Both the position numbers and the translations under genes were made by a program. The notes under the pieces are model-generated. The model saw only the letters and a list, made by a program, of their open reading frames with translations, searched no databases and was not told where the DNA came from. 64,000 nucleotides of DNA from Thermoanaerobaculia bacterium (lineage in GTDB: Bacteria; Acidobacteriota; Thermoanaerobaculia; Multivoradales; Multivoraceae): contig OY761158.1 of NCBI GenBank assembly GCA_963664405.1, positions 4,128,001 through 4,192,000 of the forward strand. Direction: 5' to 3'. This document shows positions 1,922 to 43,278 of the stretch, in pieces (the stretch's first letter is position 1; each line of letters begins with the position of its first letter).

Positions 1922-3254
1922 AGGGACTATCTCGGGCGATGCCGTTCTGCGAGTGCTGGTCCAGGTCTCTGCCCAAAGCTCGACCGGCACCCTCACGGTC
2001 CAGGGGGCCGAGGATGTTCTCGCAGTGCGCTTTCGCCAGGGCGAAGTCGTCGGGGCGGATGCGTTGAAGGAGTCTTTCGAGCGCGGTTTCGGTGCTGTGC
2101 TCGTCGAAGAAGAATTGATCAGCCCGCGTCAAGTGGTCGAGGTTGCCGAAGCTGATGTCCAGGGCACCGTTTACGATCATCTGCTCAACACGGGTCTGGT
2201 CGCGTCCGATGATCTCTATCGCTGCCTTCGTGAGCACAGCTATCGTCTCCTTCTCCGCCTTCTTGTTTGGTCGAGTGGCGAGTTTCAGTTCTACGAAGGC
2301 GAAGTGTCATGGAACAGATCCGTCCAGCCTCTCTCGGTTGAGGAGATTCTGGTTAGAGCGTCGCCGAAGATCGAAAGCTTGGTCGGAGGCAGAATAGGTC
2401 CTCTGACCGACGAGGTCTTGCGCCCCGTTCTACAGGGAAGAGCCCCGCGTGTATTGAGCTGGGATGAATCATCGAGCGTCAATGTGGGCGAGGGTGAGTG
2501 GCTCACGCCGCTGGAGGACGCCCTGCTGCGCTCCCTGGATGGGCTGACGCCCGCTTTGGACTTCAAGGACACTCTCGGCATTGACGAGTTCCGTCTGCGC
2601 TTCGCGCTTCACCGGCTACGTTCTGCCGGTCTTGTCGAGCGGGTTGATGATCTGGCACATGGTCTCGACACCGAGACCTCCGCGCCAGACCAGGCCGAAG
2701 CGGCAGCGGAGGGTGTCGATCCAGGCTCGAGTGGTTCTGGCTCAGCGAAGTTTTCCCAGCGCCTCGCTCGCGTCAAGGAGCTCAGTTCGCTTCTCAGCGA
2801 TCTGAGTCGCGGTTTCTCCTACATCTTGGCGGCCGGGCTTGCCGTACTGCTGCTTGTGATGGTTCTTTGGGGTGGCAGCTCCTCCTACCTCCATCATCCC
2901 TTTCCTTGGCAGGAATCTTCTCGTCAGAGCCTCGACAATCTCCGGGCGACGGCCTCCTATCGCGATATCAGTGGCAAGCTGCAGACGTATCACGTTCTCT
3001 TCGGCACCTTCCCTCTCGACTTCGACCCTTTGATGGAGACCGGTCTGGTTTCGGAGAGAACTTTGCGCGATGCTCGCGGACGAGAGATTGCCTTCGAGAG
3101 CCTGGAGCAGGGCTATGTTCTGGAGCTGAGGGTGCTGGGGGAAGCCACTGGCACCAACCGCCTACGCTTCGACGCCAAGGGCGACTTCCTCCTCGACCCG
3201 GAGCGCACTCGGGTTGAAGATGAGAATGAGCAGCCCCTGTTCGTAATCGACTAG
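1911..3254 (+). CDS. DUF4388 domain membrane protein
   Basis: N-terminal GTISG..VL..STGTLTV..F..GEVV and WSSGEFQF pattern typical of DUF4388; one TM segment; overlaps upstream gene. Confidence 0.7.
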   Translation: MWSRGTISGDAVLRVLVQVSAQSSTGTLTVQGAEDVLAVRFRQGEVVGADALKESFERGFGAVLVEEELISPRQVVEVAEADVQGTVYDHLLNTGLVASDDLYRCLREHSYRLLLRLLVWSSGEFQFYEGEVSWNRSVQPLSVEEILVRASPKIESLVGGRIGPLTDEVLRPVLQGRAPRVLSWDESSSVNVGEGEWLTPLEDALLRSLDGLTPALDFKDTLGIDEFRLRFALHRLRSAGLVERVDDLAHGLDTETSAPDQAEAAAEGVDPGSSGSGSAKFSQRLARVKELSSLLSDLSRGFSYILAAGLAVLLLVMVLWGGSSSYLHHPFPWQESSRQSLDNLRATASYRDISGKLQTYHVLFGTFPLDFDPLMETGLVSERTLRDARGREIAFESLEQGYVLELRVLGEATGTNRLRFDAKGDFLLDPERTRVEDENEQPLFVID

Positions 3255-3494
3255 ACCAGCGTTTCCGAAGTTCGAGTCGCATAGCTCGAGGTCATTCTGT
3301 TCGCTGGCTAGGAGCCTGCAAGGCAGGCGAGTAGTTCTCAGGCGGGGATGGGCCGGAGAACGGGCCGCAGGTCCGTTTTCCGGGGCGAGGCGCGCCGAGG
3401 CAGGCATATTGGGAATCTGTCGAGGAGGTGCAACGCTGCCAGCGGGCAGAAGGGGCCGAGATAGGTGGCGCGAACTTTGGAAACGCTGGTCTAG
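3251..3494 (+). mobile_element. MITE-like hairpin element, family I copy A (with nested family II insert)
   Basis: TIRs CTAGACCAGCGTTTCCGAAGTTCG / CGAACTTTGGAAACGCTGGTCTAG (23/24); core shared with 41064-41230 and 43111-43278. Confidence 0.8.
3308..3389 (+). repeat. Family II two-hairpin element, diverged copy nested in family I copy A
   Basis: CAGGCGAGTAGTTCTCAGGCGGGGATGGGCCGGAGAACGGGCCGCAGGTCCGTTTTCCGGGGC matches the copies at 14185-14275 and 57309-57399; this stretch is absent from the other family I copies. Confidence 0.8.
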
Positions 3495-3641
3495 GGGTCA
3501 AGAGGTCGGGGCTCCTCTCCTCCGGGACTCTCCTCGAGCTTCTCCCTCCGCCAAGAACCTCCTCGCCCGCCGCTCGAAAGCGCCTCTTCTAGGACGCTGC
3601 AGCGATCTCGCCCTTTTCCTTCCCACAGGATGGGAATAAAT

Positions 3642-3707
3642 CTTAGCTATTTATTGTCATATATAGTGATGGTAGGACTTGACATGAAAGCACTGAGGTT
3701 CTAGTGT
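3642..3707 (+). promoter_or_regulatory. sigma70 promoter of dnaK-hspR overlapped by HAIR-like HspR operator(s)
   Basis: TTGACA-N17-TAGTGT; CTTGACA-N7-ACTGAGG (3678-3698) resembles HAIR CTTGAGT-N7-ACTCAAG; second inverted TGACA-N8-CTAAG site at about 3642-3659. Confidence 0.6.
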
Positions 3708-3739
3708 CTGCTTCCTGGAACCCAAGGAGGAGTAACCCT

Positions 3740-5653
3740 GTGAGCAAGATTATCGGTATCGATCTAGGCACGACGAACAGCGTGGTGTCGGTTATGGAGG
3801 GAGGGGAGGCCAAGGTCATTCCCAACGCTGAGGGTAGTCGTACGACTGCCTCGGTGGTCGCCTTTACCAAGAGCGGAGAACGACTGGCGGGCCAAGTTGC
3901 CAAGCGTCAGTCGATCACCAACCCGCAGAACACGGTCTTCTCGATCAAGCGCTTCATGGGGCGGCGCTTCGATGAGGTAAGTGAGGAGTCGAAGATGGTG
4001 CCCTACCAGCTTCATCGTGCGGAAAACGGCGATGTGCGAGTGGTGGCCGAGGGCAAGCATTACTCGCCGCCCGAAATCTCGGCGATGATCCTGCAAAAGC
4101 TCAAGAGTGCGGCGGAAGACTATCTCGGCGACAAGGTCGAGCGAGCGGTCATCACCGTGCCCGCGTACTTTAATGACGCCCAGCGGCAGGCCACAAAGGA
4201 CGCTGGTCGTATTGCCGGCCTCGAGGTCGAGAGACTCGTCAACGAGCCCACGGCGGCTGCACTCGCCTATGGCCTGGACAAGAAATCGGATCAGACCATC
4301 GCGGTCTACGACTTCGGTGGCGGTACTTTCGACATCTCGATTCTGGAGGTGGGTGAGGGTGTTGTCGAGGTGAAGGCCACTAATGGCGATACCCATCTTG
4401 GCGGCGACAATCTGGATCAGCGCATCATCGAGTGGCTCCTGGATGAGTTCAAGAAGGACCAGGGGATCGACCTGGGGCAGGATCCGATGGCCATGCAGCG
4501 GCTCAAAGAGGCGGCGGAGAAGGCGAAGATCGAGCTCTCGACAGCCCAGCAGAGCGAAATCAATCTGCCCTTCGTCACCGCCGATGCCTCCGGCCCCAAG
4601 CATCTGACCCTGAGCCTTTCTCGCGCCAAGCTCGAGCAGTTGGTCGAGGACATCGTCAAGAGGTCGGTTGCACCCTGCCGGCAGGCCTTGAAAGATGCCG
4701 GAATGCAGCCTGGCGATGTCGACGAGGTCGTTCTTGTCGGTGGCCAGACTCGGATGCCGATCGTTCAGAAGGTGGTCGAGGACATCTTCGGCAAGCCGCC
4801 TCACAAAGGCGTCAATCCGGACGAGGTCGTGGCGATCGGGGCCGCAATTCAAGGTGGCGTTCTCGCCGGCGACGTCAAGGACGTACTACTTCTCGACGTG
4901 ACGCCTCTGTCGCTCGGGATCGAGACGCTCGGCGGGGTTTTCACCCGTCTGATCGATCGCAATACGACCATCCCAACGCGCAAGAGCGAGACCTTTTCGA
5001 CTGCGGCTGACAGCCAGACCTCGGTAGAGGTCCACGTTCTCCAGGGAGAGCGCGAGATGGCGCCCGATAATCGTACGCTGGGTCGCTTCCACCTGGTGGG
5101 TATAACGGCGGCTCCTCGCGGTGTGCCGCAGATCGAAGTCGCGTTCGATATCGATGCGAACGGCATCGTCAATGTTTCCGCAAAGGATCTCGGGACCGGC
5201 AAAGAGCAGCGGATCACGATCAGTGGTTCCAGTGGTCTCGAGGAGGACGACATCCAGCGGATGGTGAAGGACGCCGATGAGCATGGCGAGGAGGATCTCG
5301 CCAAGCGTCAGGTGGTCGAGAGCCGGAATCGGCTCGACAGCCTGGTCTACAACAGCGACAAGTCCTTTGGAGAGCACAAGGACAAGCTCTCCGCCGAGGA
5401 CCAGGGGAAGATGCAAGAAGCTCTCAGCGAGGCTAAGAAGGCCCTCGAGGGCGACGACGCGGCCGTGATGGACGCAGCTATGCAAAGTCTCGAACAGGCA
5501 TCGCACAAACTGGCTGAGCACATGTATCAGCAGGCTCCTGGGGGTGGGCCTGAAGGTGCCCCTCCGGGTCCCGGCGGCGAGGGCGAGCCGGCTTCCGGTT
5601 CCGATGATGAGGTCATAGACGCCGAGTTTGTCGACGTCGACGAGTCGAAGTGA
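3740..5653 (+). CDS. dnaK: Chaperone DnaK (Hsp70), copy 1
   Basis: [39 protein letters not shown]-terminal EVIDAEF; GTG start after AGGAGG. Confidence 0.98.
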
Positions 5654-5712
5654 CGAAGGCGGTAGGCGCCGGTGAGCCGGCGCCTACCAGCCCGATCGTG
5701 AGGGCAAGTGTC

Positions 5713-6081
5713 ATGGCGAAGAGAGAACGCAAGTACGTGATGATCAGCACGGTGGCGGAGCGCTTCGACATTCATCCGCAGACCCTCCGCCTTTACGAGA
5801 GGGAAGGCCTTCTTGAACCCACTCGAAGTGCCGGCAACACGCGGCTCTACGACTCGGCAACGTTGGATCGGCTTGAGTTGATTCTTACCTTGACCCGGGA
5901 TATGGGTGTGAACCTCGCCGGAGTGGAGGTCATTCTCCGACTCCGAGAGCAGCTTGATGAGCTGCGGCGGCGAGTCGAGGCACTAGAGGGTCGGCTCCAG
6001 GAGGACGGAGAAGGCTCGGTGACTGTGCGCCGCAACTTCTCGTTGGTTCGCGTTGAAGGCGGCCCGTTGGTAAAGCCGTAG
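5713..6081 (+). CDS. hspR: MerR-family heat-shock repressor HspR
   Basis: ISTVAERFDIHPQTLRLYEREGLL..R..GNTRLY, MGVNLAGVEVIL; directly after dnaK. Confidence 0.88.
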   Translation: MAKRERKYVMISTVAERFDIHPQTLRLYEREGLLEPTRSAGNTRLYDSATLDRLELILTLTRDMGVNLAGVEVILRLREQLDELRRRVEALEGRLQEDGEGSVTVRRNFSLVRVEGGPLVKP

Positions 6082-6155
6082 CTCTTGGAGCGGAGGGCCT
6101 TCAATTTCGATCGCGAGCGCCTTCTCCGAAGGCGACCCCGTGCTACGATCCGAGC

Positions 6156-6962
6156 GTGGTTGTTCCCGTCGAGTCGACGGACGTATGTGCCGACTGTGGC
6201 GGTCAGGGCTGGGTCTCCAGCGACGAAGAGCTCGGTCTCGTTCGACGTTGTAGGTGCCGCACCACTCGGGACGTGGGGCGCCTTCTAAGACACGCCCAGA
6301 TTCCTCCACGCTATCGGAATTGTCGGCTGGCGGGCTTTCAGGCATCCGATCACCGTAGCGCCGGGAGAGCGCAGCTGGTGCGAGCGAAGAGTCTCTGCCG
6401 TCGGTACGTGGATGACTTTCTTCGTGACGAGGACGGGCGGCGCTTTTGCGACACCGGGCTGCTTTTTGCTGGGCCGCCGGGTGTCGGAAAGACCCATCTC
6501 GCGGCTGCCGTCCTCGCTGAGCTGATCGAGACTTACCGTGTCCGGGGCCGTTTCGTCGACCTCACCGCTCTCACCCATGAGTTGCAGGCCTTGATGGATC
6601 CGGAATCCGATCGGTCCCGCGGCTCCATACTCCGTCCCATCGAGAGTGCCGAGATTCTGGTTCTCGACGAGCTGGGGTCGCAGAAGTCGACGCCGTGGTC
6701 GAGAGACGTACTCTACAATCTCATCAATCGGCGCTACGCAAAGCGGCTACCGACGCTTTTTACGACTAACTTTCGTCTCGACCAGGGAGCTTCGGAGGAC
6801 GAGTCTCTTGATCGTACTCTTGACACTGGTCGCGCGGAGCTCCTCTCCTATCGGATCCCAGCGGTGTTGGTGAGCCGTCTGCACGAGATGGCGCAGCCCA
6901 TCTCTCTCGATGCGGTCAGTGACTATCGTCGAGAGGTTCGATCCCACCAGCACCAGGGCTAG
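6156..6962 (+). CDS. DnaC/IstB-like AAA+ ATPase (probable helicase loader)
   Basis: N-terminal CxxC...CxC, IPPRY, Walker A GPPGVGKT, Walker B LVLDELG, TTNF, SRLHEM. Confidence 0.8.
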   Translation: MVVPVESTDVCADCGGQGWVSSDEELGLVRRCRCRTTRDVGRLLRHAQIPPRYRNCRLAGFQASDHRSAGRAQLVRAKSLCRRYVDDFLRDEDGRRFCDTGLLFAGPPGVGKTHLAAAVLAELIETYRVRGRFVDLTALTHELQALMDPESDRSRGSILRPIESAEILVLDELGSQKSTPWSRDVLYNLINRRYAKRLPTLFTTNFRLDQGASEDESLDRTLDTGRAELLSYRIPAVLVSRLHEMAQPISLDAVSDYRREVRSHQHQG

Positions 6963-6968
6963 CGGTAG

Positions 6969-9023
6969 ATGGCTAGGGTCGCCGTCACTTTCGCCTGTCT
7001 GCTGCTTTGCGCCGCCGTGGACGCAGCCGAGGTTGCTCGTGGCGATCTGGCAGCTTATCCCTATGATGACGGTGTCCTGGTCCGAGTGGGGCTGAGAACA
7101 GACCTCGCAGAGCTCGCTCTGCCCTGTTGCCTCGAGGATGGCGTGATGGTCGTAGGCACGACGCGAGAAGCGCTTCACGGCTCACTGCGAGTGCAACCCG
7201 GTGCGGTCGGCGGCAAGCAGGTTTTTCGGGTGCAGGTTGCCGCGTTGAAAGACGAGGCGCAGGCCGTCGCCTTGGCCGAACGTGCCGACGAGCTGACCGG
7301 GGTCTCCTCGGACACGGTTTTTGACATTGCCTCATCCTTCTATCGAGTCCGCATCGGGCGTTTCGAGAGCCGCGAGCTCGCCGAGAGCCAGCGCGACCTC
7401 TTCGCTGAGCGCGGTCTCACAGGCGGTTGGGTCGTGACCGAGGGGGCGGCCTTCGAGCGCCCTTTGTTACGACTGACTCTTGCTAACGAGCAGCGCGTTG
7501 TCGAAGGAAGGTGGATTGGGCTGGAAGCGCGCCGAGGAGAGCAGGTACGACTCGGCAGCGGCAGCTTTCGGGGTCGGATCTTGATCTATCTGAACGATCG
7601 AGGCCTGCTCAATCTGATCAACGAAGTTCCCCTGGAAGACTACCTTCGAGGAGTAGTCCCTCTCGAGATGGGGCCGGAGCTGTACCGAAATCTCGAGTCG
7701 TTGAAGGCTCAGGCTGTAGCGGCGAGAACCTTCGCCATGCACAACGCCGGCGGTTTTTTCGCCGAGGGCTACGACATCTGCGCTTCGCCGCGCTGTCAGG
7801 TGTACGGCGGCGCGGATGTCGAGCACCCTCTTTCCGATCGTGCCATTGCCGCCACCGCCGGAGAAGTCGTGATTCACGAGGGCCAGATCGCTGAAGCGCT
7901 CTATAGCGCCTCGTGCGGAGGGTTCACCGAGAATGTCGAGACCGTGTTTCCCCACAAGAGAGCTCGCTATCTGCGAGGTGTGCCGTGCCCGGAAGCGGGA
8001 GCGACGTCGCTACGGGGCGCTGTGGCCGAGGGTACTCCGATGGCCGCGGGCGTAATGCGGGCGCTGATTCCCCAGACTGGCGGCGGCGGGCCGGCGGAGT
8101 ACGAGGGCCGACTAAAGGAGGTGGCTCGACTTGCCTCGTTACCCGTTCCTCGAGACTCTCTTTCCTCGCTCGATCGGGACGAAGTGAGGCGCTACCTTGC
8201 GTCCCTCTTTGATCTGGTCCTGGATGCCCGCTTGCTACGTGCCCAAGCGGCGCCCTCCAACGTGCAGTGGAGCTCAGTCGAGCGCAGGCTCCACCAGCGC
8301 TTCGCGAGGGGAGAGGGCGCTTTGAACCGGCCCATGACGGACACTCAGCTCGAAGAGGTTCTTCTGGATCTGACCCGACTCCTCGGGCTCACGAGGGAGG
8401 AGCTTGCTTACTTTCTTCACCTCGGTTCCGGTGGTCTCGAAGTGCGGGCTCGCGGCGAGAAACGCCTCCTTTCTTTGACCCCGCAGCTCGGCACCTTTCG
8501 TTTGCGGGACGGGAGGTTCGTGGCGGGAAGCCTGAAGCTAGCAGCCGGGGATCGACTGCGCCTGGTGTGGAGTGCTGATCGGCTTCTCGGTGTGGCTCAG
8601 GAGCGCTCGGTCGCAGCTTTAGCGCCTGGAAAGACTGCCTGGAGGCGCTTTCGTAGCGATCGCGATCTGGGACGGTCGCTGCAGGTCGTCTATCCCGGTT
8701 TTGCCTTGGCGGATCTCGAGGTCGTATCTCGAGGTGTCTCGGGCCGGGTTGGCCAGCTTCGCCTCCATGACGCTTCGGGCGAGACAGTGCTGGTCGAAGG
8801 GCTGGCGGTGCGCTGGACGCTGGATACGCCGGACACTTGGTTCGATCTGCGACGAGGGACCCAGGATGGCCACTCCGGTTGGGTCTTTGACGGACGGGGT
8901 CGTGGGCACGGGGTCGGAATGTGCCAGCTCGGTGCCTTTGCCATGGGCCAGCGCGGACACACCTATCGCGAGATCCTGGCTCATTACTACACCGGTGCGA
9001 AGCTCGGCCGCCTGAGCGGTTGA
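6969..9023 (+). CDS. SpoIID/LytB domain protein with SPOR domain
   Basis: LEDYLRGVVPLEM, LKAQAVAART, CQVYGG, GHGVGMCQ.GA, ILAHYY; SPOR-like FRVQVAA/YRVRIG. Confidence 0.9.
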   Translation: MARVAVTFACLLLCAAVDAAEVARGDLAAYPYDDGVLVRVGLRTDLAELALPCCLEDGVMVVGTTREALHGSLRVQPGAVGGKQVFRVQVAALKDEAQAVALAERADELTGVSSDTVFDIASSFYRVRIGRFESRELAESQRDLFAERGLTGGWVVTEGAAFERPLLRLTLANEQRVVEGRWIGLEARRGEQVRLGSGSFRGRILIYLNDRGLLNLINEVPLEDYLRGVVPLEMGPELYRNLESLKAQAVAARTFAMHNAGGFFAEGYDICASPRCQVYGGADVEHPLSDRAIAATAGEVVIHEGQIAEALYSASCGGFTENVETVFPHKRARYLRGVPCPEAGATSLRGAVAEGTPMAAGVMRALIPQTGGGGPAEYEGRLKEVARLASLPVPRDSLSSLDRDEVRRYLASLFDLVLDARLLRAQAAPSNVQWSSVERRLHQRFARGEGALNRPMTDTQLEEVLLDLTRLLGLTREELAYFLHLGSGGLEVRARGEKRLLSLTPQLGTFRLRDGRFVAGSLKLAAGDRLRLVWSADRLLGVAQERSVAALAPGKTAWRRFRSDRDLGRSLQVVYPGFALADLEVVSRGVSGRVGQLRLHDASGETVLVEGLAVRWTLDTPDTWFDLRRGTQDGHSGWVFDGRGRGHGVGMCQLGAFAMGQRGHTYREILAHYYTGAKLGRLSG

Positions 9024-9038
9024 GCTACCCGAGGTCGA

Positions 9039-10016
9039 ATGACAGCTCCTAACGAGATGGCCGCGGATCTTCTCGCCGGGGTCCTGGCGCGAAATCGACG
9101 AGCTTTGGGTCGGGCTCTGTCCGTTCTCGAAGACAGGACGAAGGAAGCCTCTTGGTTGCTTGGCCAGCTCTATGCACTGAGCGGGAATGCCCGCGTGGTG
9201 GGGATCACTGGACCCCCCGGCTGCGGCAAGAGCACTCTGGTGGAGGCGCTGACGAAGAGCTACCGAGGCCTCGGGCTGAGTGTGGGCATCCTGGCAGTTG
9301 ATCCGACCAGCCCATACACCGGCGGCGCTTTGCTGGGCGACCGAGTGAGAATGCAGGCTCTCGCCACGGACTCCGGCGTCTTCATCCGTTCGATGGCCAC
9401 TCGCGGCGCTATGGGAGGCTTAGCGCTTGCCACTCGCGACTCGGTCGACCTGCTTGACGCGGCGGGCTACGATCGGATCTTGGTCGAAACGGTGGGAGTT
9501 GGGCAGGACGAAGTCGATGTCATTCGCACCGTAGACGAGGTCATCGTGGTCACTGTTCCGGGGCTAGGTGACGAGATTCAAGCGATTAAGGCTGGAATCA
9601 TGGAGATTGCCGACATCTTCGTCGTTAACAAAGCGGACCGGCCTGGCGCCGAGCTTGCCGTGCGGGACCTTCGTGCTGCCCTCGAGATGGCAGAGGCTGA
9701 GGGTGTGAAGCCGCCCATTCTCACCACTGTTGCAAGCGAAGGCGATGGCGTCGACGATCTACGCGAGAATATCGAGCAGCGCTACGATGCGATGGAATCG
9801 AACGGCGACCTCCTTAGACGGCGCTTTCTTCATCTCCGCTTGCGAGTAGAGAATATTTTGCAGCGGAGGATCCTCGCAGCTGCGGCCGATCTGCTGGATC
9901 TGGAGGCCGAGCTGGTTATTGCGTGGGAGCAACGGACCGATCCCTACACGCTTGCCGATCGCCTCTTCGCTGGCGTCCTGTCGCACTACGGCGAGCCAGG
10001 TCGCCCGCGGGGATGA
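9039..10016 (+). CDS. meaB: Methylmalonyl-CoA mutase-associated GTPase MeaB
   Basis: GITGPPGCGKST, AVDPTSP..GGALLGDRVRM, ETVGVGQDE, IQAIKAGIMEIAD. Confidence 0.95.
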   Translation: MTAPNEMAADLLAGVLARNRRALGRALSVLEDRTKEASWLLGQLYALSGNARVVGITGPPGCGKSTLVEALTKSYRGLGLSVGILAVDPTSPYTGGALLGDRVRMQALATDSGVFIRSMATRGAMGGLALATRDSVDLLDAAGYDRILVETVGVGQDEVDVIRTVDEVIVVTVPGLGDEIQAIKAGIMEIADIFVVNKADRPGAELAVRDLRAALEMAEAEGVKPPILTTVASEGDGVDDLRENIEQRYDAMESNGDLLRRRFLHLRLRVENILQRRILAAAADLLDLEAELVIAWEQRTDPYTLADRLFAGVLSHYGEPGRPRG

Positions 10017-10113
10017 TGGTTCGAGGGCCGGCGGCGGCCGCGCCAGATGTTAGGGTCATGCTCCGCTCCAATTGGCAGGAGACTGAGCGGATCCATCTTC
10101 GAGGGGAGCAGAG

Positions 10114-10545
10114 TTGATTCGGGGAATCGAGCACATCGGTATTGCAGTGCGATCCATTGAGGAGGCGCGCACCTTCTATGAGTCCCTCGGCCTGGTAGTG
10201 GAAGAGATCGAAGAGGTGCCTCAGGAGGGAGTGCGAGTCGCGATGATCCCCTGTGGCGAGTCGCGAATTGAGCTGCTCGAGCCTACCCGGGACGATTCGC
10301 CGGTGGCGAAATTTCTGGACAAGCGTGGGCCGGGTCTCCACCACTTGTGTCTCGCCAGCGATGGAGTCGAAGAGGACGACCGCCGACTTCGTGAAGAGGG
10401 TGTGCAGCTCTTGCGCCCTGAGCCCTCTCCGGGGGCCGGCGGTGCCACGGTGCAGTTCGTTCATCCGCGAAGTAGTCGCGGAGTCCTAGTTGAGCTGTCA
10501 GAGCTGGCGCTGCCCGGCAGCGACGGGGTTCGAAGCGATGATTGA
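10114..10545 (+). CDS. mce: Methylmalonyl-CoA epimerase
   Basis: IEHIGIAV, IELLEP..SPVAKFL.KRGPGLHH, FVHP..GVLVEL; next to meaB. Confidence 0.92.
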   Translation: MIRGIEHIGIAVRSIEEARTFYESLGLVVEEIEEVPQEGVRVAMIPCGESRIELLEPTRDDSPVAKFLDKRGPGLHHLCLASDGVEEDDRRLREEGVQLLRPEPSPGAGGATVQFVHPRSSRGVLVELSELALPGSDGVRSDD

Positions 10546-10879: not shown

Positions 10880-10900
10880 GGCTGCGATCGTCGACTCGGC

Positions 10901-33880: not shown

Positions 33881-33897
33881 ACCGAGGAGGCCCGCCG

Positions 33898-34893: not shown

Positions 34894-35164
34894 GAGCGTG
34901 AGAGCTGGAGCCGGGGGGTGAGGGGTTCCCGGCGCAGCCGAGGCGTAGCCCGTCGTGGCGAGCCGGGATCAGGTTCCTTGCTGCGATGCATTTCCAATGC
35001 TTGCCGCGGTGCTCTAAGACAAGCGCCTAAACCCGGCTCGGCCCATGCAGTCCTTCCAGGTCCGGGGACGACAATACGCTCGGCTACGACTACCGGTGCG
35101 TGACGGGCTCAGAGAGCCGAGCGAGCAGGGAACCCCTCACCCCCCGGCTCCAGCTCTCGCGCTC
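34894..35164. repeat. 271-bp element with 37-bp terminal inverted repeats
   Basis: GAGCGTGAGAGCTGGAGCCGGGGGGTGAGGGGTTCCC and its complement at 35128-35164 (36/37); internal nested stems. Confidence 0.85.
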
Positions 35165-35244
35165 GATCGGAGCGCCGCTCCGGCGCAGACACCCCAGTCG
35201 CGACCGCGACCCGACCGCGACCCGACAACGACCCGATGCTCGAC

Positions 35245-36231
35245 TCACTGGAAACGCCTCAGAGGAGCGCGGTTTTTTTCGAGCTCGATCTCGATTTGGC
35301 GGAAAAGGGCGTCTTCGCGCTGGTGCCAGGATTGCGGAGTGAAGGATGCCGCGGGGGCGGAGAGGAATACGAGACCGCGACCTGTGCCTGAGTCTGTGCC
35401 GGCCTTGATGCGGATGTCTGCCCAGATCAGAGTCCAGGCCGGCGTTACCTCGACACGCCTGTCGTAGGGTAGGCGCAGCTCGGTGAGGGCGTTGAGGATC
35501 GCGCCTACCAGGCGGCCGCCGTCGGAGGAGTAGGGCACGGAGTAGGTGTGGCTGGCGGTGAGCGAGCCCGGCGGGGGGACGAAGACGTCGGTCTCGAGGA
35601 GCGATTGATAGCCCGGAGTCTCAGCTAGGCGCGCGAAGTTGCTGTCGGTGCGCGCCCGCAAGCGTACTTTTTCGTCGAGCTGTACTGCTTGCGAGAGGTG
35701 ACGCATGGCTAAGGCCGAGTAACCAGCCATGGCGTAGTTGGTCGCTACTAGGTAGTAGTCGTCGCCAGAGCGGGAAGGCCTCGCGAGGTGCTTCTGGAAG
35801 TGCTCGGAGGACTCTTCGAGACGGCCGGCGAAGAGTAGAGCCGCGCCGAGGTTGAGGTGGTTGTCGACAGCCTCCGGATCGAGCTTCTGTGCCTGGACGA
35901 AGTTCTCGTACGCGACGTCGTAGTTGGCGTCAGACAGCTCGAGCGCAGCGAGGTTGAGCCACCCCTGTCGTTGGCTCGGATCGAGGGCGAGGGCGCGTCG
36001 CAGATCCGCCTCCCCTGATTCTCGCTCGCCGAGGTAGAAACGCGCCGTGCTGCGCAAGAGAAGAGCGCGAGCATCCTCAGGTGCAGCTTGCAGCAAGCCG
36101 TCGAGCAGCACGATTGCCTTCGGAGCGTCGCCGGCGTCGAGCAGCTCCTCGGCGCGGGCAACGGAGTCGGTCTGGGCCGAGACTCCGGTCTGAAGGAGCA
36201 GGCTGATGACTAGGAGTAGAGAAATTCGCAC
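35245..36231 (-). CDS. Exported TPR protein
   Basis: Signal peptide; tandem TPRs (DLRRALALDP, WLNLAAL, HLNLGAAL). Confidence 0.82.
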   Translation of the reverse strand: MRISLLLVISLLLQTGVSAQTDSVARAEELLDAGDAPKAIVLLDGLLQAAPEDARALLLRSTARFYLGERESGEADLRRALALDPSQRQGWLNLAALELSDANYDVAYENFVQAQKLDPEAVDNHLNLGAALLFAGRLEESSEHFQKHLARPSRSGDDYYLVATNYAMAGYSALAMRHLSQAVQLDEKVRLRARTDSNFARLAETPGYQSLLETDVFVPPPGSLTASHTYSVPYSSDGGRLVGAILNALTELRLPYDRRVEVTPAWTLIWADIRIKAGTDSGTGRGLVFLSAPAASFTPQSWHQREDALFRQIEIELEKNRAPLRRFQ

Positions 36232-36335
36232 GGCACACTCGAGGCGACACCTGATGTTGTGACAACCTCCCATCCTATTGGATCAGAAGCGCGGGGGCCT
36301 TGGGAAGTTTGCCGCTCCTGTAGAATCTGAAAGCC

Positions 36336-37439
36336 ATGTCGGACTTGCCTGCTCCCAAAGAGATCGCCGATGCGCTCGAGAACCGGGTCTTCGGTCAACA
36401 GGAAGCTGTGCGCGAGATGGCCGTTGCGCTGTCGAAGAAAGTCGCGGGTCTCAAGGTCGGAAATATCCTGCTCATTGGCTCTTCCGGCTCCGGCAAGACG
36501 ACTCTTATGAGGGCCGTGGAAGGCTTCCTGGCAGAGAATGAGGCGCTCGCGGCGAGATCCACGGTGGTCCGGGTTCATGCCAATATTCTGGGCGAAGAGG
36601 CGCAGGAGGGACACCCCGGCGAGAAGCTTCTGCTCAGACTGGTTGAAAGGGCGCGCCAACAACTGGGCGATGACGCCAGTGTCGATAGCATCCTCGATCG
36701 AGCGGTCCAGGGCCTGGTCTTTGTCGACGAAGTAGACAAGATCCGCTCGGTGGTGGGCTCGCGGCCCAATATCCACGGCATCCGAGCCCAGGAGGCCCTG
36801 CTCACCTTGATCGAGAACGAGGCTGTGCTCTTTGCTCTGCCGGAGTGGGCCGGCGGGGATACGGTGGAGATCGATTCGAGTGGCCTTCTCTTTGTCTGCG
36901 CAGGTGCCTTCGAAGGGCTCTATGACGCGGTGTACGACCGGGTTACGGTCGGCGCCGACCGCGGCTCGCTGCAGCCGGTGACCGTGGTCGACCAGGGGCA
37001 GGTGCGAGAGGAGACTCCTTTCCGGTTGCGCGACTGGTTGCGCCCGGTGGATCTCTTCGACTACGGAATGAGTCCGCAGTTCCTCTCCCGCTTCGATGCC
37101 ACCGTGCTCCTCCAAGATCTCGGCGTCGAGGAGCTTGTCACCATCTTTCTCGAGAGCCCGGAGTCGGCTTACCTTCAGGCGATCGAGTACTTCATCTCCC
37201 GCGACATCGGGCTGGCGATGTCTCCCGCGGCAGTACGCCGAGTTGCAGAAGAGGCCGCCGCTCAGCCGCGCCTCGGTGCCCGAGCGCTCAAGGAAGTCTT
37301 TCGGCGGGTCATCCGAGACTATGAGTACGATCCGTCGCTCATCGGCGGCGAAGGCCACCGCGTTCTCATGATCGATCTTCCGGAGGTTGTGGAAGCCCTT
37401 GATCGCGCTTCTGCTCCCGCGCTTGCCGCCAAGCAATGA
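36336..37439 (+). CDS. ClpX-like AAA+ ATPase (atypical)
   Basis: VFGQQEA, NILLIGSSGSGKT, VFVDEVDKI, QEALLTLIE, FVCAGAF, LGARAL. Confidence 0.85.
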   Translation: MSDLPAPKEIADALENRVFGQQEAVREMAVALSKKVAGLKVGNILLIGSSGSGKTTLMRAVEGFLAENEALAARSTVVRVHANILGEEAQEGHPGEKLLLRLVERARQQLGDDASVDSILDRAVQGLVFVDEVDKIRSVVGSRPNIHGIRAQEALLTLIENEAVLFALPEWAGGDTVEIDSSGLLFVCAGAFEGLYDAVYDRVTVGADRGSLQPVTVVDQGQVREETPFRLRDWLRPVDLFDYGMSPQFLSRFDATVLLQDLGVEELVTIFLESPESAYLQAIEYFISRDIGLAMSPAAVRRVAEEAAAQPRLGARALKEVFRRVIRDYEYDPSLIGGEGHRVLMIDLPEVVEALDRASAPALAAKQ

Positions 37440-38091
37440 TGCGTGGCGGGACCAGGGAGAGAATCAGGATCAGCGTGGTGGCCAAAATCAGGTTGCGGAA
37501 GACGCCGCTCCGCTCTGCCTGCGCCACCTGAGTGAGTGAGGCTGCGAGATAGGTGTAGATGTAGGTAATCGGCCCGAGGCCCAATGCGGTTGACAGTGCG
37601 AAGACCGGAAAGCGCAGCCCGGCCAACGAGGCAGCGTAGTTGGTCAAGACAAATGGACACGGCAGGTAGCGCATGCGGAAGAGGGTCCAAAAACCGTGCC
37701 GCTCGAGTAACTTCTCAACGGTCTGGAGCCTCTCTCCGAAGAGGTGAACTACCAAGTCGCGAGCCAGGGTGTGGGCGAGAAGAAAACTGAGGAGAGCGCC
37801 CAGGAAGGTCCCCAGGTAGGCGAGGGTCCCCCCCCAAATGGCGCCGAATACGACTCCGGCGGAAAGTACTAGCGGACTGGCGGGGAAACCGATTGACGTG
37901 AGTACGGCTGTGCTGACGACGTAGCCGGGCACCGCCAAGGGATGTGCGCCGAGCTGCCGTAGAGTCTCGGACAGAGTTTCCGGATTGAGCTGCTCGCGCA
38001 CCGCCGGGACTCGCAGCGTGAGCAAGCTCGCTACAAGGATCGCCGCTAGGACACCGAAGCGGAGCAGGAGCCCGCGTGGAATGCGTAGCAT
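37366..38091 (-). CDS. DedA/VTT (TVP38/TMEM64) membrane protein
   Basis: AGVVFGAIWG, GTFLGA..F.LA, RYLPCPF..NYAA. Confidence 0.85.
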   Translation of the reverse strand: MLRIPRGLLLRFGVLAAILVASLLTLRVPAVREQLNPETLSETLRQLGAHPLAVPGYVVSTAVLTSIGFPASPLVLSAGVVFGAIWGGTLAYLGTFLGALLSFLLAHTLARDLVVHLFGERLQTVEKLLERHGFWTLFRMRYLPCPFVLTNYAASLAGLRFPVFALSTALGLGPITYIYTYLAASLTQVAQAERSGVFRNLILATTLILILSLVPPRIIAWRQAREQKRDQGLPQPPEDRS

Positions 38092-38104
38092 CGGCCTGCC
38101 GCGC

Positions 38105-38350
38105 TCAACTCTCCTCAGCGGTGGCCGAGGGAAGAACGAGGAACTCTCTCAGCTGGTGCTGGAGAATTTCGGCGGCCTCGGGGTCCATGAAGTTCAGCCG
38201 CAGCTCGTTGATGACTTTGACTTCCTGGTCCTCCCATTCGCGCCAGCAGTTCTGACAGACGTTGAGGACTACTTCGGCAGCCAAGTCGGTGGGCAGCGGG
38301 GGCTCAGCTGCTAGAGCCGGCCCCGACTTTTGGCAGCGCGAGCACTTCAG
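38105..38350 (-). CDS. YggX-like Fe(II)-trafficking / oxidative damage protection protein
   Basis: My translation: LKCSRCQKSGPALAAEPPLPTDLAAEVVLNVCQNCWREWEDQEVKVINELRLNFMDPEAAEILQHQLREFL...; not in the ORF track; apparent CTG start. Confidence 0.8.
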   Translation of the reverse strand: MKCSRCQKSGPALAAEPPLPTDLAAEVVLNVCQNCWREWEDQEVKVINELRLNFMDPEAAEILQHQLREFLVLPSATAEES

Positions 38351-38616
38351 CTTCGCACCTCGCCGGGAAGGACGATGCGGCTCTCGGACCGCTCGAGCAC
38401 CTCCCGCGGAATCTGAACCAGCAGGACGAGGTCGCGGGATTTCTGACTGCCCCTGACGTTCTTGACCATGTCATCGGGTACGGCGATCTTGAGCCATGCC
38501 GGCCGCTTCTCGTTGCGGCGAGCGCTGTCCGTTACCAGCTGGTCGACTTGGGCTATCAGCAGGCGGTCGCGGTACTTGTCGAGGGCAAAGGCGAGGCTGT
38601 CCAATTCGTCGCTCAT
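38347..38616 (-). CDS. Hypothetical protein
   Basis: Co-oriented between uxs-like and yggX-like genes; protein-like composition. Confidence 0.7.
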   Translation of the reverse strand: MSDELDSLAFALDKYRDRLLIAQVDQLVTDSARRNEKRPAWLKIAVPDDMVKNVRGSQKSRDLVLLVQIPREVLERSESRIVLPGEVRS

Positions 38617-38626
38617 GGCTGCCATT

Positions 38627-39589
38627 CTACACCGCAGGGCTGGCCGGGCCGCTGTCCTCGCTCAGTCCTCGGAAGTAATCGATGGTCTTCCGAAGTCCCT
38701 CTTCTAACGGGACTTGCGGCTCCCAGCCGAGAATCTTCCGAGCTCGACTGATGTCAGGCTGTCGGGTCTTCGGGTCGTCTATGGGAAGTTCCTTGAACTC
38801 GATCGGAGACGACGAACCGGTGAGCTCCGCGATTCTCTCCGCGAACTCTAGAATCGTCAGCTCGCTTGGGTTGCCGATATTGACAGGCTCGCGCTCTGTG
38901 CTGTTGAGGAGTCGCCAGATACCCTCGACGAGGTCGTCTACGTAGCAGAAAGAGCGCGTCTGCGACCCCGTTCCGAAGACGGTAAGGGGCTCGTTGCGCA
39001 GACATTGGTCGATGAATGCTGGCACTACTCGGCCGTCGCGCGGTCGCATTCGCGGACCATAGGTGTTGAAGATGCGAACGATGCGAGTCTCTAGGCCGTG
39101 TACTCGGTGGTAGGCCATCACCATTGCCTCTCCGAAGCGCTTGGCTTCGTCGTAGACACCGCGAGGGCCGACAGGGTTTACGTTGCCCCAGTAAGACTCG
39201 GGCTGTGGATGGATGAGGGGGTCGCCGTAGACCTCTGAGGTAGAAGCCAATAAGTAGGTGGCGCCGTGGGCCTTGGCGAGCCCCAAGGTGTTGTGTGTCC
39301 CCAGCGACCCGACCTTCAGTGTCTGGATGGGGAGCTCGAGATAGTCGATGGGGCTGGCGGGCGAGGCGAAGTGAAGTACGTAGTCGACCTTTTCGGATAT
39401 CTCCAAGGGCAGGCTGATGTCATGTTGAACGAAGCGAAATCGGCTCTCTCCCTCGAGATGGGCGATATTCGTTCTTCGACCGGTAAGCAGGTTGTCGACG
39501 CAAATGACGTCGCGACCCTCGGCCAGGATTCGCTCGCACAGGTGCGAGCCGAGGAAGCCAGCGCCGCCGGTGACCAGAGCCGTGGTCAC
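38627..39589 (-). CDS. UDP-glucuronate decarboxylase family (SDR)
   Basis: [44 protein letters not shown]. Confidence 0.92.
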
Positions 39590-40905
39590 GACGTGGTCAC
39601 GACGCTTCGGCGACCGACCGAGATGTAGCGTATCCCTGCCTCGAGCATCTCGACTGGATCGTAGAGGTTACGAAGGTCGACTACAACTGCTGCCTTCATC
39701 AACTCCTTCAGCCTCTCGGTCTCGAGCTTTCGAAATTGGTTCCACTCGGTCAGGATTACAAGCCCGTCTGCGTCGGTCGCCGCGTCGTAGGGGCCGTCGC
39801 AGAAGACGACTCCCGGTAGCCGGTCGCGGCACGCGTTCATGGCCGCCGGATCGTAGGCCCGGATTTGAGCGCCGCGCTTCTGCAACTCCCTGATGATACT
39901 GAGTGCGGGCGATTCACGTACGTCGTCCGTATCGGGCTTGAACGACAACCCCAAGACCGCGAGGGTAGTTCCCTCTAGGCCGTCGAAGGAGTTATCGATC
40001 TTTGCGACCATGCGCTCTCGAGTGTGATCGTTGGCTTCGAGAACCGCTTCGACGATGCGTAAGCGGACGTCGTTTTCGCGCGCAATCTGAGCAATCGCGC
40101 GGGTATCCTTCGGGAAGCAGGAGCCGCCAAAACCGGGCCCAGGGTGAAGAAACTGATTGCCAATTCGTGCGTCCAGGCCCATGCCCTGAGCAACAACCTC
40201 GACGTCTGCCTCCAGCACCTCGCAGAGCTCCGCGATCTCGTTGATGAAAGATATCTTCGTTGCCAGGAAGCTGTTGGAGGCGTACTTGATCAGCTCGGCG
40301 CTCTCGACGTCGGTAGTTACGAAGGGAACGCCCGCATTTCGAAGCGGCGAGTAGATGTCGAGCATGATCCGAAGCGCACGGCGATCCCGAGTACCGATGA
40401 CGACGCGGTCGGGGTGGAGGAAGTCGTCGATGGCCGACCCCTCGCGCAAAAACTCGGGGTTGGAGACCACCGCGAACTCCTGGCGTCCCCCTGTAGAGGT
40501 GCTTACGATGTCGGCGATCTCCTTGCCGGTCCCGATCGGAACTGTGCTCTTGGTGACGATTGCTTTGTAGCCGTTCAGGTTCTCGCCGATGGATTGTGCG
40601 ACCTGGCGGATGAATGTCAGGTCGGCGGAGCCATCCGGTAGTGGAGGAGTGCCGACGGCAATGAAGACGGCGGCCGATTGCTGAATCGCTGCGGGTATGT
40701 CTGTCGAGAAAGAGAGCCGACCCTCGGCTTCGTTCTTTTCGACAAGGCTCGCCAAGCCGGGCTCGTAAATCGGGATTTCGCCCGCACGTAACGAGTCGAT
40801 CTTGGACTTGTCCTTGTCGGCGCCAACAACCTGCATGCCGAAGTCGGCTAGGCAGGCGCCTGTCACCAGGCCCACATATCCCGTGCCTATGACGCTTATC
40901 TTCAT
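39586..40905 (-). CDS. ugd: UDP-glucose 6-dehydrogenase
   Basis: [48 protein letters not shown]. Confidence 0.95.
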
Positions 40906-41063
40906 GGCGAAATGATAGGTCGGTTTGCGGTCGCTATGGCGAAGGCGTGCTGCCTAGGATCAAGGGCGGGTCGTAGACTACCCGAGGGTCCTCGAGCACG
41001 CAACCGTAACCTGAGCAGGCCCCCTGCCATCCTTAACTGTCTCGAAATTATGGAGTTAGCCTT

Positions 41064-41230
41064 CTAGTGTCGTGTCCCAGAAATGCCTACCCAATAGCTC
41101 GGCCCCTTTCGCTCGCTGCCTTCGTTACGCCTCGTCGACAGATTTCCCAATATGCCTGCCTCGCCGCGCCTTGGCAGCGACCGAAATGACCTCGATCTAT
41201 TAGGCAGGCATCTCCGGGACACGACACTAG
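41064..41230 (-). mobile_element. MITE-like hairpin element, family I copy C
   Basis: 34-bp imperfect TIRs CTAGTGTCGTGTCCC(A/G)GA(A/G)ATGCCT..; core nearly colinear with copy A; CTAG coincides with the mlaD stop. Confidence 0.82.
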
Positions 41231-42366
41231 GGGCTCTCCTCGAGGCCGGCCTGCGACTCTTCGTATCGGGTGCGCACACCCGACTTCTGGCGGTCGCGGA
41301 CCAGCCAGCGAAGGAACTTCGACTCATCAACGCCAACCAGGATGTCGTTCAGCGCCTCGTAGACGCTGGGGTCATTCAGCAGCAGAGCGGCGCTGCCATC
41401 ACCTTTGTTCAGCTTTTCAGTGGCCTCGTTGAGGTTCCCCAGAAGCTGGCGTAGCTCCGTGGTGAGCTCTTCCGCGAGCTCTTCGTCACTGATGAGGCGT
41501 GGTAAGAGGCCATCGCCGTCGCTCATCTCTGCCACCAGGGTGCTCAGTCTGTCACCGGAATCTCCCAAGCTTTGCAACGCCGAGTCGAAGTCATCTCGCG
41601 TAGTGGCATCGGTGAGCAGGGCGGGCAGCAATCCCTCCCCTTCGTCGATATTGGCCAACAGCGATTGGACTTCGACGATTACCGTGTCGAGGCCGTCTGT
41701 TAGCTCCGAGTCATAGATCAGGCGCCCGAGGGAGCCGCCGCCGGTGCGAACGTCGTGGATCACGAGCCTGATCTCGCCGAGGAGGGCTGTAACCGTGTCC
41801 GTCAAAGTGGTCCCGTCTTCCGACTCGGCCAAGAGCGAGCCTAGGAAACCCTCTCCGCGCTCCATCTTGCTGAGAATGTTGGAGAGTGAGTGGGCGGCCA
41901 CTGAGAGATTGGCCACCACGTCTCCGCCGGAGGCCAAGAGCTCGTCGATCTCGGTCGCGGGCGCCGCTGGGATCTCGTTCCCCGGATGAACCTGCTCATA
42001 GCTCGGCGTCCCCGACCGAATGGAGACGAACTTGTCCCCGAGCAAGCCGAGTGTCTGGATGCGGGCGAGCGAGTCCTCGCGAATGCGCTTCGCGAAACGA
42101 CGATCGACCGAGATCCAGACTTTGAGCTGTGTCTCGCCGGTGTCTTCGGGCAGGATTATTTCCTCAACCTTGCCTACTGCCACACCATTGAGCTGCACCG
42201 GATTGCCCGCAGCGAGGCTACTGACATTGTCGAATTGAACGAAGTATCGACTTTTCCGCGAGAACAGGAGGTCCTTCTCGCCGACCACGAAAACGAGGCC
42301 TGCGAACGCCGCTAGTCCGACAAGCACAGTAGCTCCGACCCGAGCTGCCGAGCCGTCACGCGGCAT
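41227..42366 (-). CDS. mlaD: MCE/MlaD family protein
   Basis: N-terminal TM, L..GNPV.LNGV.VG.V, IQTLGLLGDKFV, long helical tail. Confidence 0.88.
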   Translation of the reverse strand: MPRDGSAARVGATVLVGLAAFAGLVFVVGEKDLLFSRKSRYFVQFDNVSSLAAGNPVQLNGVAVGKVEEIILPEDTGETQLKVWISVDRRFAKRIREDSLARIQTLGLLGDKFVSIRSGTPSYEQVHPGNEIPAAPATEIDELLASGGDVVANLSVAAHSLSNILSKMERGEGFLGSLLAESEDGTTLTDTVTALLGEIRLVIHDVRTGGGSLGRLIYDSELTDGLDTVIVEVQSLLANIDEGEGLLPALLTDATTRDDFDSALQSLGDSGDRLSTLVAEMSDGDGLLPRLISDEELAEELTTELRQLLGNLNEATEKLNKGDGSAALLLNDPSVYEALNDILVGVDESKFLRWLVRDRQKSGVRTRYEESQAGLEESP

Positions 42367-43111
42367 ACTCTTCCTCGCTGTGTCCGGCTAGGAAGCCACG
42401 GAACACCTGGTCGTCGCTCGCATCGGCTTCGTCCCAGGTGCCTACGAAGCGGAAGGAACCGGCCTCGAGAAAGGCCACCTTGTCGCCGACAGCCCGAGCC
42501 AACGGAACGTCATGAGTGACTACTACCGAAGTTACGGTCATGGTGGTACGAGTGTCGGCAATGAGGTCGCCAATGGTCGCCGAGGTGACGGGGTCTAGAC
42601 CTGAGGTCGGCTCGTCGTAGAGCAGGGCCTCAGGGTCGAGGGCAAGTGATCTGGCCAGCGCCACCCTCTTACGCATTCCTCCGGACAGATCAGAGGGCAT
42701 TTTCGCCTCGATACCCGGTAGACGGACCAGACGAAGTTTCTCTTCAACCTTGCTGCGGATGACGCTTTCTTCGAGATCGGTATGCTCGCGCAGGGGGAAC
42801 GCGATGTTCTCGAAGACGTCCATCGAGTCGAACAGCGCGCCCGATTGGAAGAGCATGGCCACCCGCCTGCGCAATGGGTAGAGCTCGCGCTCGCGCAGCT
42901 GGGTTATCTCCTCGCCGTCGAAGACGACGCTTCCCGAATCGGCGGTCTCGAGGCCGTTGAGTTGGCGAAGAGTCACACTCTTGCCGCATCCGGATCGGCC
43001 CATGATGACAAAGCACTCACCCTCGAGAACCTCGAAGCTGAGGTTGTCGAGGACCTTGACCATGCCATAGCTCTTGGAAAGGTTCTCTACCTTGAAGAGC
43101 ACGCTAGGCAC
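42356..43111 (-). CDS. mlaF: MlaF ABC ATP-binding protein
   Basis: GRSGCGKS, FQSGALFDS, LSGGMRKRVALAR, YDEPTSGLDP. Confidence 0.92.
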   Translation of the reverse strand: MPSVLFKVENLSKSYGMVKVLDNLSFEVLEGECFVIMGRSGCGKSVTLRQLNGLETADSGSVVFDGEEITQLRERELYPLRRRVAMLFQSGALFDSMDVFENIAFPLREHTDLEESVIRSKVEEKLRLVRLPGIEAKMPSDLSGGMRKRVALARSLALDPEALLYDEPTSGLDPVTSATIGDLIADTRTTMTVTSVVVTHDVPLARAVGDKVAFLEAGSFRFVGTWDEADASDDQVFRGFLAGHSEEEYAA

Positions 43112-43278
43112 TAGTGGACCGTAACACTCGAACGTTTAGTGGCTGGGTGAGTCATTCGTGGTCGAGATCAAGGCGCGCTGACGCAGGCATATCGGGGACT
43201 ATGTCGAGGAAGCGTAACGCAGAGATCGGCCGCGAGGGCCGCTCAGGCGCTAAACGTTTGGGTGTTACGGTCCACTAG
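43111..43278 (+). mobile_element. MITE-like hairpin element, family I copy D
   Basis: TIRs CTAGTGGACCGTAACAC(TCG/CCA)AACGTTTAG; core motifs AAGGCGCG..GCAGGCATA..TGTCGAGG..AACGC. Confidence 0.82.

Follow-up and report, generated by a model that had tools for sequence, protein, structure and literature searches.

Three short repeats in a 64,000-nt stretch of the genome of a Thermoanaerobaculia bacterium (hereafter the window: positions 4,128,001–4,192,000 on a 6.78-Mb single contig whose G+C content is 62.6%) belong to a high-copy family of mobile, non-coding elements, in which inverted ends of the type found in IS630-family insertion sequences (IS) enclose a conserved, structured core. Each of the three, here called A, C, and D, is bounded by CTAG and has self-complementary termini, and sequence inspection and alignment revealed an ordered core common to all of them (AGGCGCG..GCAGGCATA-loop-TGTCGA(G/C)G..AACG). 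An earlier note on this DNA had listed the coordinates and strands of A, C, and D, their shared core, and a set of covarying stems (CGCTGGC/GCCAGCG in A, CGCTGCC/GGCAGCG in C, and GTGGTCGA/TCGGCCGC in D), and all of these were found as it described them. The repeats are probably miniature transposable elements with inverted repeats (MITEs) of the IS630/Tc1-mariner type, in which a fold formed by one strand would be needed in cis for the founding of new copies.

When the whole genome was searched with a sequence profile derived from 114 different copies, 259 non-overlapping matches were returned, 214 full-length and 45 partial, and most of the partial pieces are halves of copies split by inserts. 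The family comprises about 240 CTAG-ended, rod-folding copies, typically 165–168 nt in length, and occupies ~0.6% of the genome as an unannotated repeat; this recurrence far exceeds chance. Full copies measure 162–168 nt, with the exception of one 132-nt copy and a 172–181-nt variant. When the first 20 bases of each full-length copy are used to assign arm classes, at least seven are distinguished: T1 (128 copies), T2 (26), T3 (16), T4 (12), T5 (8), T6 (20), and T7 (1), with three copies unclassed. Members of a class mostly diverge by ~1–8 bases, and five T5 copies are identical to their class consensus. The coding capacity of this short, multi-copy element is nil, and compensating changes in the arms rule out a conserved open reading frame (ORF).

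It is usually by its ends that a MITE is defined, and the interior is regarded as drifting junk. The opposite pattern was found here, as the earlier note had proposed: in a nearly gapless alignment of 168 columns, made from 20 copies that cover all classes, between-class identity averages 80% in the core (~55 nt; range 71–93%) and 46% in each of the ends, with 47–49% in the inner arms. The termini had also been described as self-complementary within each copy and unrelated between copies. The first part of this description holds; as to the second, the ends are strongly diverged but homologous, since those of all classes align in register without gaps, with G11, T12, and C15 present in ≥90% of rows, a pattern that is also found in IS630 ends. 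The classes thus represent one diverged set of ends, an outcome that the note had itself named as speaking against its interpretation. Within classes, the core differs from the class consensus by 2.4% and the arms by 1.2–3.9%, so that at this level the core is no more conserved than the arms. No naked core devoid of arms was found: the partial matches in genome G095 lie at contig ends, and that in G109 stems from a decayed copy which another repeat has interrupted.

Each element pairs end to end to form a single rod of 165–168 nt. Changes on both sides of a pair were observed in 42 of the 54 predicted pairs among the 20 copies from this genome, and in 49 of 55 pairs when the comparison covers 13 genomes of the phylum (16 copies). 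In this second set, 92.1% of cells are paired, compared with 61.1% after shuffling (none of 500 shuffles reached the observed value) and 31–40% when the partners are slid. The parts that remain fixed are unpaired or non-canonical: CAAGGCGC lies opposite GCAACG, and a covarying C-G/G-C pair is flanked on both sides by GA opposite GA, an arrangement that corresponds to the TGTCGA(G/C)G motif of the earlier description. Internal loops are purine-rich, and an apical hairpin occupies the center of the rod. The selected fold that had been proposed for the core is therefore supported by strong two-sided covariation, which extends over the whole rod and is accompanied by a one-strand G:U signature (see below). 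The possibility that the apical hairpin is a conserved Xer/dif-like site was discarded, as its sequence is not conserved across the phylum and covaries. The comparison with Rfam recommended in the note matched no family: the 64-kb window gave no match at the gathering score, and with E-values of up to 10 the region 40900–43400 gave only a chance match to the mgtC leader (16.6 bits).

The two strands of the rod are not equivalent. Among single oppositions in the seven class consensus sequences, 50 are G:U and none is A:C. In two cross-genome sets, the G:U and A:C counts are 82 vs. 15 and 66 vs. 9, although these ratios are somewhat inflated, since the copies are the best hits of a structure-aware model that penalizes A:C more than G:U. 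Each rod contains 4–10 G:U pairs, and in each of the seven classes the core-sense (+) strand folds more stably than its complement, with both RNA and DNA parameters (by 6.6–16.9 kcal/mol with the latter). On both sides, G:U is the intermediate of G-C and A-U states, so that cytosine deamination alone is insufficient to account for it. Private changes in resident copies, counted in the 121 of 214 copies of modal length with at most 15 differences, gave rise to 73 G:U and 54 A:C (p = 0.11). Mutational bias was accordingly rejected as the source of the G:U excess, as resident changes are near-symmetric and G:U pairs derive from GC as well as from AU. This near-symmetry, together with the unprotected core within classes, indicates that selection is visible between lineages and not in resident copies. 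The asymmetry would therefore arise along the lineages that found new families, and we read it as selection on the ability to propagate.

The fold strand also shows a modest preference for the locally C-rich strand (127 vs. 84 among 211 copies, p = 0.004), which is alike in young and old copies, and long ORFs have no strand bias between the two skew arms. A survey reports mixed orientation behavior for IS630 (PMC3971601), for which reason this bias is weak evidence.

The ends of several classes match those of autonomous IS630-family elements in related genomes. The clearest case is that of a related genome, G039, in which the 42 copies listed fall on two bit scores. A 1198-bp IS in this genome (L067, 1184–2381), which encodes helix-turn-helix (HTH) domains (HTH_29/32/23/28) and a DDE_3 domain, has ends that agree with those of the G039 MITEs at 16/16 and 23/24 bases. 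The ends of class T2, to which D belongs, are identical over their first 15 nt to the right end of an IS630-family element in G036 (15/15), and their homology to the IS630 ends of G007 reaches approximately base 32. Class T4, represented in the window by C, shares the first 13 bases of its ends with IS630-family elements of G021, G018, and G020. In all of these cases, homology between IS and MITE ceases at about nt 33 and the ~100-nt interior is unlike these IS, which means that the central ~100 nt are no remnant of them. The transposases behind different end classes are 25–40% identical to each other. On these comparisons, the ends appear to have been swapped or re-tuned, all within the IS630 family.

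These matches bear on the origin of the ends that the earlier note had suggested, namely a loan from several IS families. The classes do match the ends of different autonomous IS, but every match found is to the IS630 family (HTH + DDE_3). Resident CTAG-ended elements of the IS5/IS1182 type, also considered as a source, have different termini: the ends of the 8-copy resident IS with a 442-aa product (CTAGGAGTCTGCGCGGCAG) and those of another IS (CTAGCCCCAATTCGCGAA) match no class, and a parent of this type was rejected. An enzyme that needs only a paired stem and CTAG likewise fits poorly with the base-for-base agreement of IS and MITE ends in G039. A search of this genome for class ends paired at distances of 400–5000 bp found no full-length element with these ends; two pieces of 2706 bp and one of 3639 bp were retrieved, which are MITE copies broken by IS91-type and IS21-type elements and not parents. 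For most classes, cognate IS630 ends are absent from this genome, which has only two IS630 copies, with other ends. At the left end of one of these IS630-like elements (L003, ~905–945), a potential hairpin would bury the ribosome-binding site together with the start codon of the first transposase frame; its two words (GGCATA .. CGAGGAGG) are also present in the MITE core with a different spacing, which may be due to chance.

Insertion occurs at CTAG. The tetranucleotide is found at 188 of 214 5′ ends and 186 of 214 3′ ends, and the commonest variants are TTAG (7) and CTAA (12). Two copies have TTAG..CTAA pairs, which fit a TA duplication within YTAR sites. The empty site of C contains one CTAG and the filled site two. 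Duplications of TA and of CTAG are indistinguishable at CTAG sites, and position 2 varies more than position 3. The empty single-CTAG site that the note had proposed to look for was found for C in a sister strain, whose public-run contigs (X7 and X9) are ~98.5% identical to the window: a 3691-nt contig from these runs skips 41068–41243 and retains a single CTAG. For D, no empty site was found, as the contigs stop inside the repeat and the one joint seen belongs to a distant organism. The absence of C in X7/X9, together with near-identical copies that have different flanks elsewhere, establishes that the family is mobile.

Many copies adjoin the end of a gene. Among the 168 of 214 copies with CTAG at both ends by script, and for ORFs of at least 100 codons, a TAG stop lies within a terminal CTAG in 87 (the 5′ CTAG alone in 34, the 3′ CTAG alone in 44, and both in 9); as a baseline, 36% of all 7502 CTAG sites in the genome carry the TAG stop of an ORF. 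In these 168 copies, a gene ends on the 5′ CTAG 43 times and on the 3′ CTAG 53 times. The association with stop codons is therefore real, while insertion is blind to gene direction. All three window copies conform to it, with A and C in the sense and D in the antisense orientation relative to the adjoining gene.

The element is widespread. With a covariance model, it was detected in 26 of 40 relatives within the order and in 37 of 151 genomes sampled phylum-wide; the unpublished genome G088 contributes to the phylum count alone, and without it the figure is 36 of 150. In ten of the 37 phylum genomes, the core was confirmed by eye in the top match. A core-motif scan with one genome per species yielded at least 80 loci, of which 80 were examined, and ~44 of these are full-length model matches with more than 70 bits; the search pattern itself fixes the core columns of these matches, and rod length, CTAG ends, and IS630-like termini are independent of it. 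The titles among the matches listed include Thermoanaerobaculia, other Acidobacteriota, Binatia, Thermodesulfobacteriota, Desulfuromonadales, delta-, beta-, and gammaproteobacteria, as well as Methylomirabilota, Planctomycetota, Bdellovibrionaceae, Gemmatimonadota, and Polyangia. The labels of metagenome-assembled genomes (MAGs), any single one of which may be wrong, cover about ten other phyla among the matches listed. In a MAG with 42% GC labeled Clostridiales, the arms are AT-rich and the core is kept.

These observations are consistent with a model in which the ~33-nt inverted ends would be recognized in trans by IS630-family transposases (HTH + DDE_3) and the element would insert at the TA of CTAG; elements that insert in this way often come to lie on a TAG stop codon, which the insertion rebuilds. 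Between the ends, a ~100-nt module absent from every full-length IS would complete the rod of 165–168 nt. The arm classes would track deeply diverged IS630 lineages, with the core retained throughout, and the fold of the + strand would be required in cis to found new copies and dispensable once a copy has landed. It is on the strand asymmetry between lineages that we infer this requirement for propagation. The + strand may fold as single-stranded DNA (ssDNA), either when exposed at the replication fork or within a single-stranded donor, and thereby help recognition, excision, or copying. That ssDNA of the + strand is the acting form is a guess to which we give slightly less than even weight; a read-through RNA rod is a lesser candidate, and some other form is put on a par with the RNA. 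The lean toward ssDNA comes from gene-blind orientation, which is hard to explain for read-through RNA, and from the lack of an upstream promoter carried by the element itself. It is possible, and proposed here only tentatively, that the core is a new and widespread motif whose strand-specific fold, most likely in ssDNA, is read by the IS630 transposase or by a host replication or priming factor. A core read by a protein in this manner would provide a replication-coupled, single-strand mode of multiplication that classical cut-and-paste IS630 elements lack; if true, this would explain why a single 166-nt design has received the ends of many IS630 lineages and has reached about ten phyla.

Several points, besides the inflation of the cross-genome ratios mentioned above, weigh against a cis-acting fold mobilized by IS630-family enzymes. 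The two IS630 copies of this genome (88% alike) have a split HTH/DDE_3 reading frame and ends that match no class well, with only an in-register GAAGTTC block shared with T5, T7, and T1. Within the order, a DDE_3 gene is present in 11 of 27 element-bearing and 5 of 14 element-free genomes, and none was found in G005, G024, or G004, which have 40, 24, and 19 element matches, respectively; the element and the gene thus do not occur in step. Transposases of the IS630 family are DDE enzymes with a cut-and-paste reaction on double-stranded DNA, and we know of no single-stranded step in their reaction. The end variants mostly affect the outer two positions (~14–17 and 10–15 cases) and rarely the inner two (≤3), an excess that strict TA duplication does not predict. 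Gene conversion may have inflated the apparent conservation of the core within the genome, given the hairpin and length variants that are shared between classes. Finally, some interrupted forms seem to have spread, namely the one with the 78-nt side insert (13 copies) and the one with 2.5 kb inserted in the apical loop (2 copies), and thus an unbroken rod is not strictly needed.

The same evidence has to be set against other explanations. One of them, which we regard as rather unlikely, places the function of the rod in RNA, either in read-through transcripts, where it would be selected as a 3′ stabilizer, a processing site, or an anti-polarity insulator by which insertions at stop codons would do no harm, or in a trans-acting mobilization RNA. 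A stop codon does adjoin 87 of the 168 copies, but the lack of an orientation preference (43 vs. 53) means that read-through would yield the poorly paired strand equally often, and the excess of fold strands on the C-rich strand (127 vs. 84) also argues against read-through RNA acting in cis. The G:U pairs, the purine-rich loops, and the tandem GA resemble those of structured RNAs; however, no U tract follows the rod in A, C, or D, and no promoter is possible upstream of the element's own first base. For bcr1, a mobile repeat of the Bacillus cereus group, both transcription and compensatory changes in the RNA have been reported (PMC3184786). In the present family, by contrast, resident copies drift symmetrically (73 vs. 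54) and their core is unprotected, and an RNA that acts in trans would not select the own sequence of each copy.

It is still less likely that the core has no function, its arms having been homogenized at the DNA level (by template switching in quasi-palindromes or by gene conversion) and its sequence being alike through a recent common master or segment exchange. Homogenization predicts perfect pairs or unbiased mismatches, and not 50 G:U with 0 A:C, and the resident copies display no mutational bias from which such an excess could stem. Apical-hairpin alleles that occur in several classes, 177–181-nt variants in T1, T2, and T6, and a core as variable as the arms within classes are what this explanation would lead one to expect; against it, the motifs, the 165–168-nt length, and the pairing persist phylum-wide, even in the 42%-GC host with AT-rich arms, and the partner transposases are merely 25–40% identical. 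An HUH-type single-strand transposon, that is, a REPIN/RAYT system or a palindrome-associated transposable element (PATE) derived from IS200/IS605, in which a tyrosine HUH enzyme recognizes a hairpin and CTAG, would account for a strand-specific fold and for some orientation bias relative to replication. We consider it very improbable, as that bias is weak (60:40, with the fold strand on the C-rich strand) and as the long inverted ends are identical to IS630 ends, which HUH elements lack. An HUH transposase was also rejected as mobilizer on the basis of a search for Y1_Tnp (PF01797), which had no match in G039 (the genome with the most uniform copies), G004, or G024.

Among known elements, MITEs of the IS630 family include RUP in pneumococcus, Nezha in cyanobacteria, and MITEEc1/ERIC, which ISfinder lists under IS630, and a conserved central inverted repeat of ERIC is kept across genera. 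The present elements resemble them in being short and non-coding, in having inverted ends shared with HTH + DDE_3 elements, in their insertion at CTAG, probably at its TA, with a single CTAG left in the empty site, and in their hairpin fold. The family differs from RUP, Nezha, and ERIC in its at least seven end classes, which are set against transposases only 25–40% identical while the core remains 71–93% identical, and in a length of 165–168 nt across phyla with a one-strand fold. Plant MITEs of the Stowaway type are "tuned for transposition" by internal sequences, and share with the present family a Tc1/mariner-type affiliation and an interior that, as well as the ends, affects mobilization; they are, however, eukaryotic and act on double-stranded DNA, and we know of no report of a strand-specific fold or of a core common to end classes in Stowaway. 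Folded ssDNA sites, such as the ssoA-type origins of rolling-circle plasmids, integron attC, and CTX phage attP(+), are imperfect-palindrome rods of ~60–200 nt in which one strand is active, stems are variable, and a protein reads a few fixed unpaired or bulged bases. The likeness extends to the rod, the one-strand fold, the variable stems, and the fixed unpaired bases, but those sites serve primases, RNA polymerase, or tyrosine recombinases and not DDE transposases, and no motif in common with them was seen. REP/REPIN sequences are likewise high-copy hairpin repeats that adjoin genes; unlike the present elements, REPs are 20–40 nt long, share no long inverted ends with an IS, and require a Y1 HUH enzyme (RAYT), none of which was found in G039, G004, or G024.

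MITEEc1 is filed under IS630 (PMC11602168). The bcr1 repeat is a ~155-bp mobile element, reportedly transcribed, in which compensatory changes keep the RNA structure (PMC3184786); this preservation of structure is shared with the present family. On the other side, bcr1 has 5-bp direct repeats and no reported IS630 partner (PMC3184786), and it occurs in one species group while the present family spans phyla. The nearest precedents are ERIC/MITEEc1, for a conserved center, and bcr1, for compensatory changes and transcription. In the literature consulted, neither this family nor a MITE core common to end classes was found described, although the supplementary MITE catalog of PMC11602168 may hold members. 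Three features were likewise not found described there: a core common to end classes that match deeply diverged transposases, a length fixed across phyla, and a selected one-strand fold.

The interior of these MITEs is conserved in its length, its loop motifs, and its one-strand fold signature across many labeled phyla. Should mobility depend on the core in cis, this would offer a handle on how non-autonomous elements out-multiply their autonomous partners, and a hint that Tc1/mariner-type DDE transposons can use single-stranded substrates. From a practical point of view, the family is a repeat that occupies stop codons, interrupts assemblies, and may pass for a structured RNA gene.

The features of the window are compiled in Table 1. 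The profile match to element A is split in two (genome positions 4131251–4131328 and 4131377–4131494). The start of the 78-nt insert of A, CTAGGAGCCTG, resembles the end, CTAGGAGTCTG, of the resident 8-copy DUF772/DDE_Tnp_1 IS, and the same insert is present in 13 genome copies, A included.

Table 1. Repeats of the family and adjoining genes in the window (positions counted from the first base of the window).
Feature	Position	Strand	Remarks
Element A	3251..3494	+	Class T1, 244 nt; carries nested 78-nt insert
Nested insert in A	3310..3387	+	78 nt; begins at internal CTAG
Core of A	3388..3435	+	AGGCGCG .. GA.G .. apical hairpin .. GAGGA .. AACG
Element C	41064..41230	-	Class T4, 167 nt; missing from sister strain
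Core of C	41123..41172	-	From sequence and alignment
C terminal inverted repeat 1	41064..41096	.	~33 nt; pairs with 41198–41230
C terminal inverted repeat 2	41198..41230	.	
Element D	43111..43278	+	Class T2, 168 nt
Core of D	43170..43219	+	From sequence and alignment
D terminal inverted repeat 1	43111..43143	.	Pairs with 43246–43278
D terminal inverted repeat 2	43246..43278	.	
ORF ending on A	1911..3254	+	TAG stop inside left CTAG of A; A in sense
ORF ending on C	41227..42366	-	TAG stop inside terminal CTAG of C; C in sense
ORF ending on D	43275..44090	-	TAG stop inside right CTAG of D; D antisense

At the 3′ end of the gene that adjoins C (41227..42366), the window and the sister strain differ by 12 nt in frame (window 41231–41243). 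The CTAG tetranucleotide is ~3-fold under-represented genome-wide (7502 occurrences vs. ~23,200 expected from composition), and at least three unrelated types of IS end in it or land on it: the IS630-like elements, an IS with a 442-aa DUF772/DDE_Tnp_1 product, and one with a 498-aa DDE_Tnp_1 product. In assemblies, contigs break off inside the repeat.

Length variants of 177–181 nt are found in T1 (24 copies), T2 (2), and T6 (2). In the long T1 and T2-like variants that were printed, the same ~13-nt insert stands in place of a small GGCG-AAA-CGCC hairpin, and alleles of the apical hairpin are common to several arm classes. The shared long variants and hairpin alleles suggest that core segments are exchanged between classes.

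Some copies are broken by larger inserts. A T1 element is interrupted twice in its apical loop by a 2.5-kb insert (genome positions 6272417–6275122 and 6758844–6761549; L001), which consists of an IS91-family element (Y2_Tnp + Zn_Tnp_IS91, 398 aa) and a tyrosine recombinase (299 aa). The two inserts are 97.3% identical, AAT is repeated at both junctions, and the flanks differ; the MITE arms look identical across the ~120 nt printed at each end, and a fragment of a composite of this type lies near 2170873–2171083. This is explained either by movement of the composite on the MITE ends or by a preference of the IS91-type element for the apical loop as its target. An IS21-type element, called by size and order from its IstA-like (523 aa) and IstB-like (269 aa) products, interrupts a T1 copy that belongs to the 244-nt subfamily (genome positions 6281697–6285335; L002).

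With respect to the replication landmarks of the genome, a dif-like site at ~6,765,435 coincides with the maximum of the cumulative GC skew. The dnaA gene is located at ~3,418,369 (3.42 Mb) and the skew minimum at ~2,740,000 (2.74 Mb), a mismatch that suggests a rearrangement near the origin.

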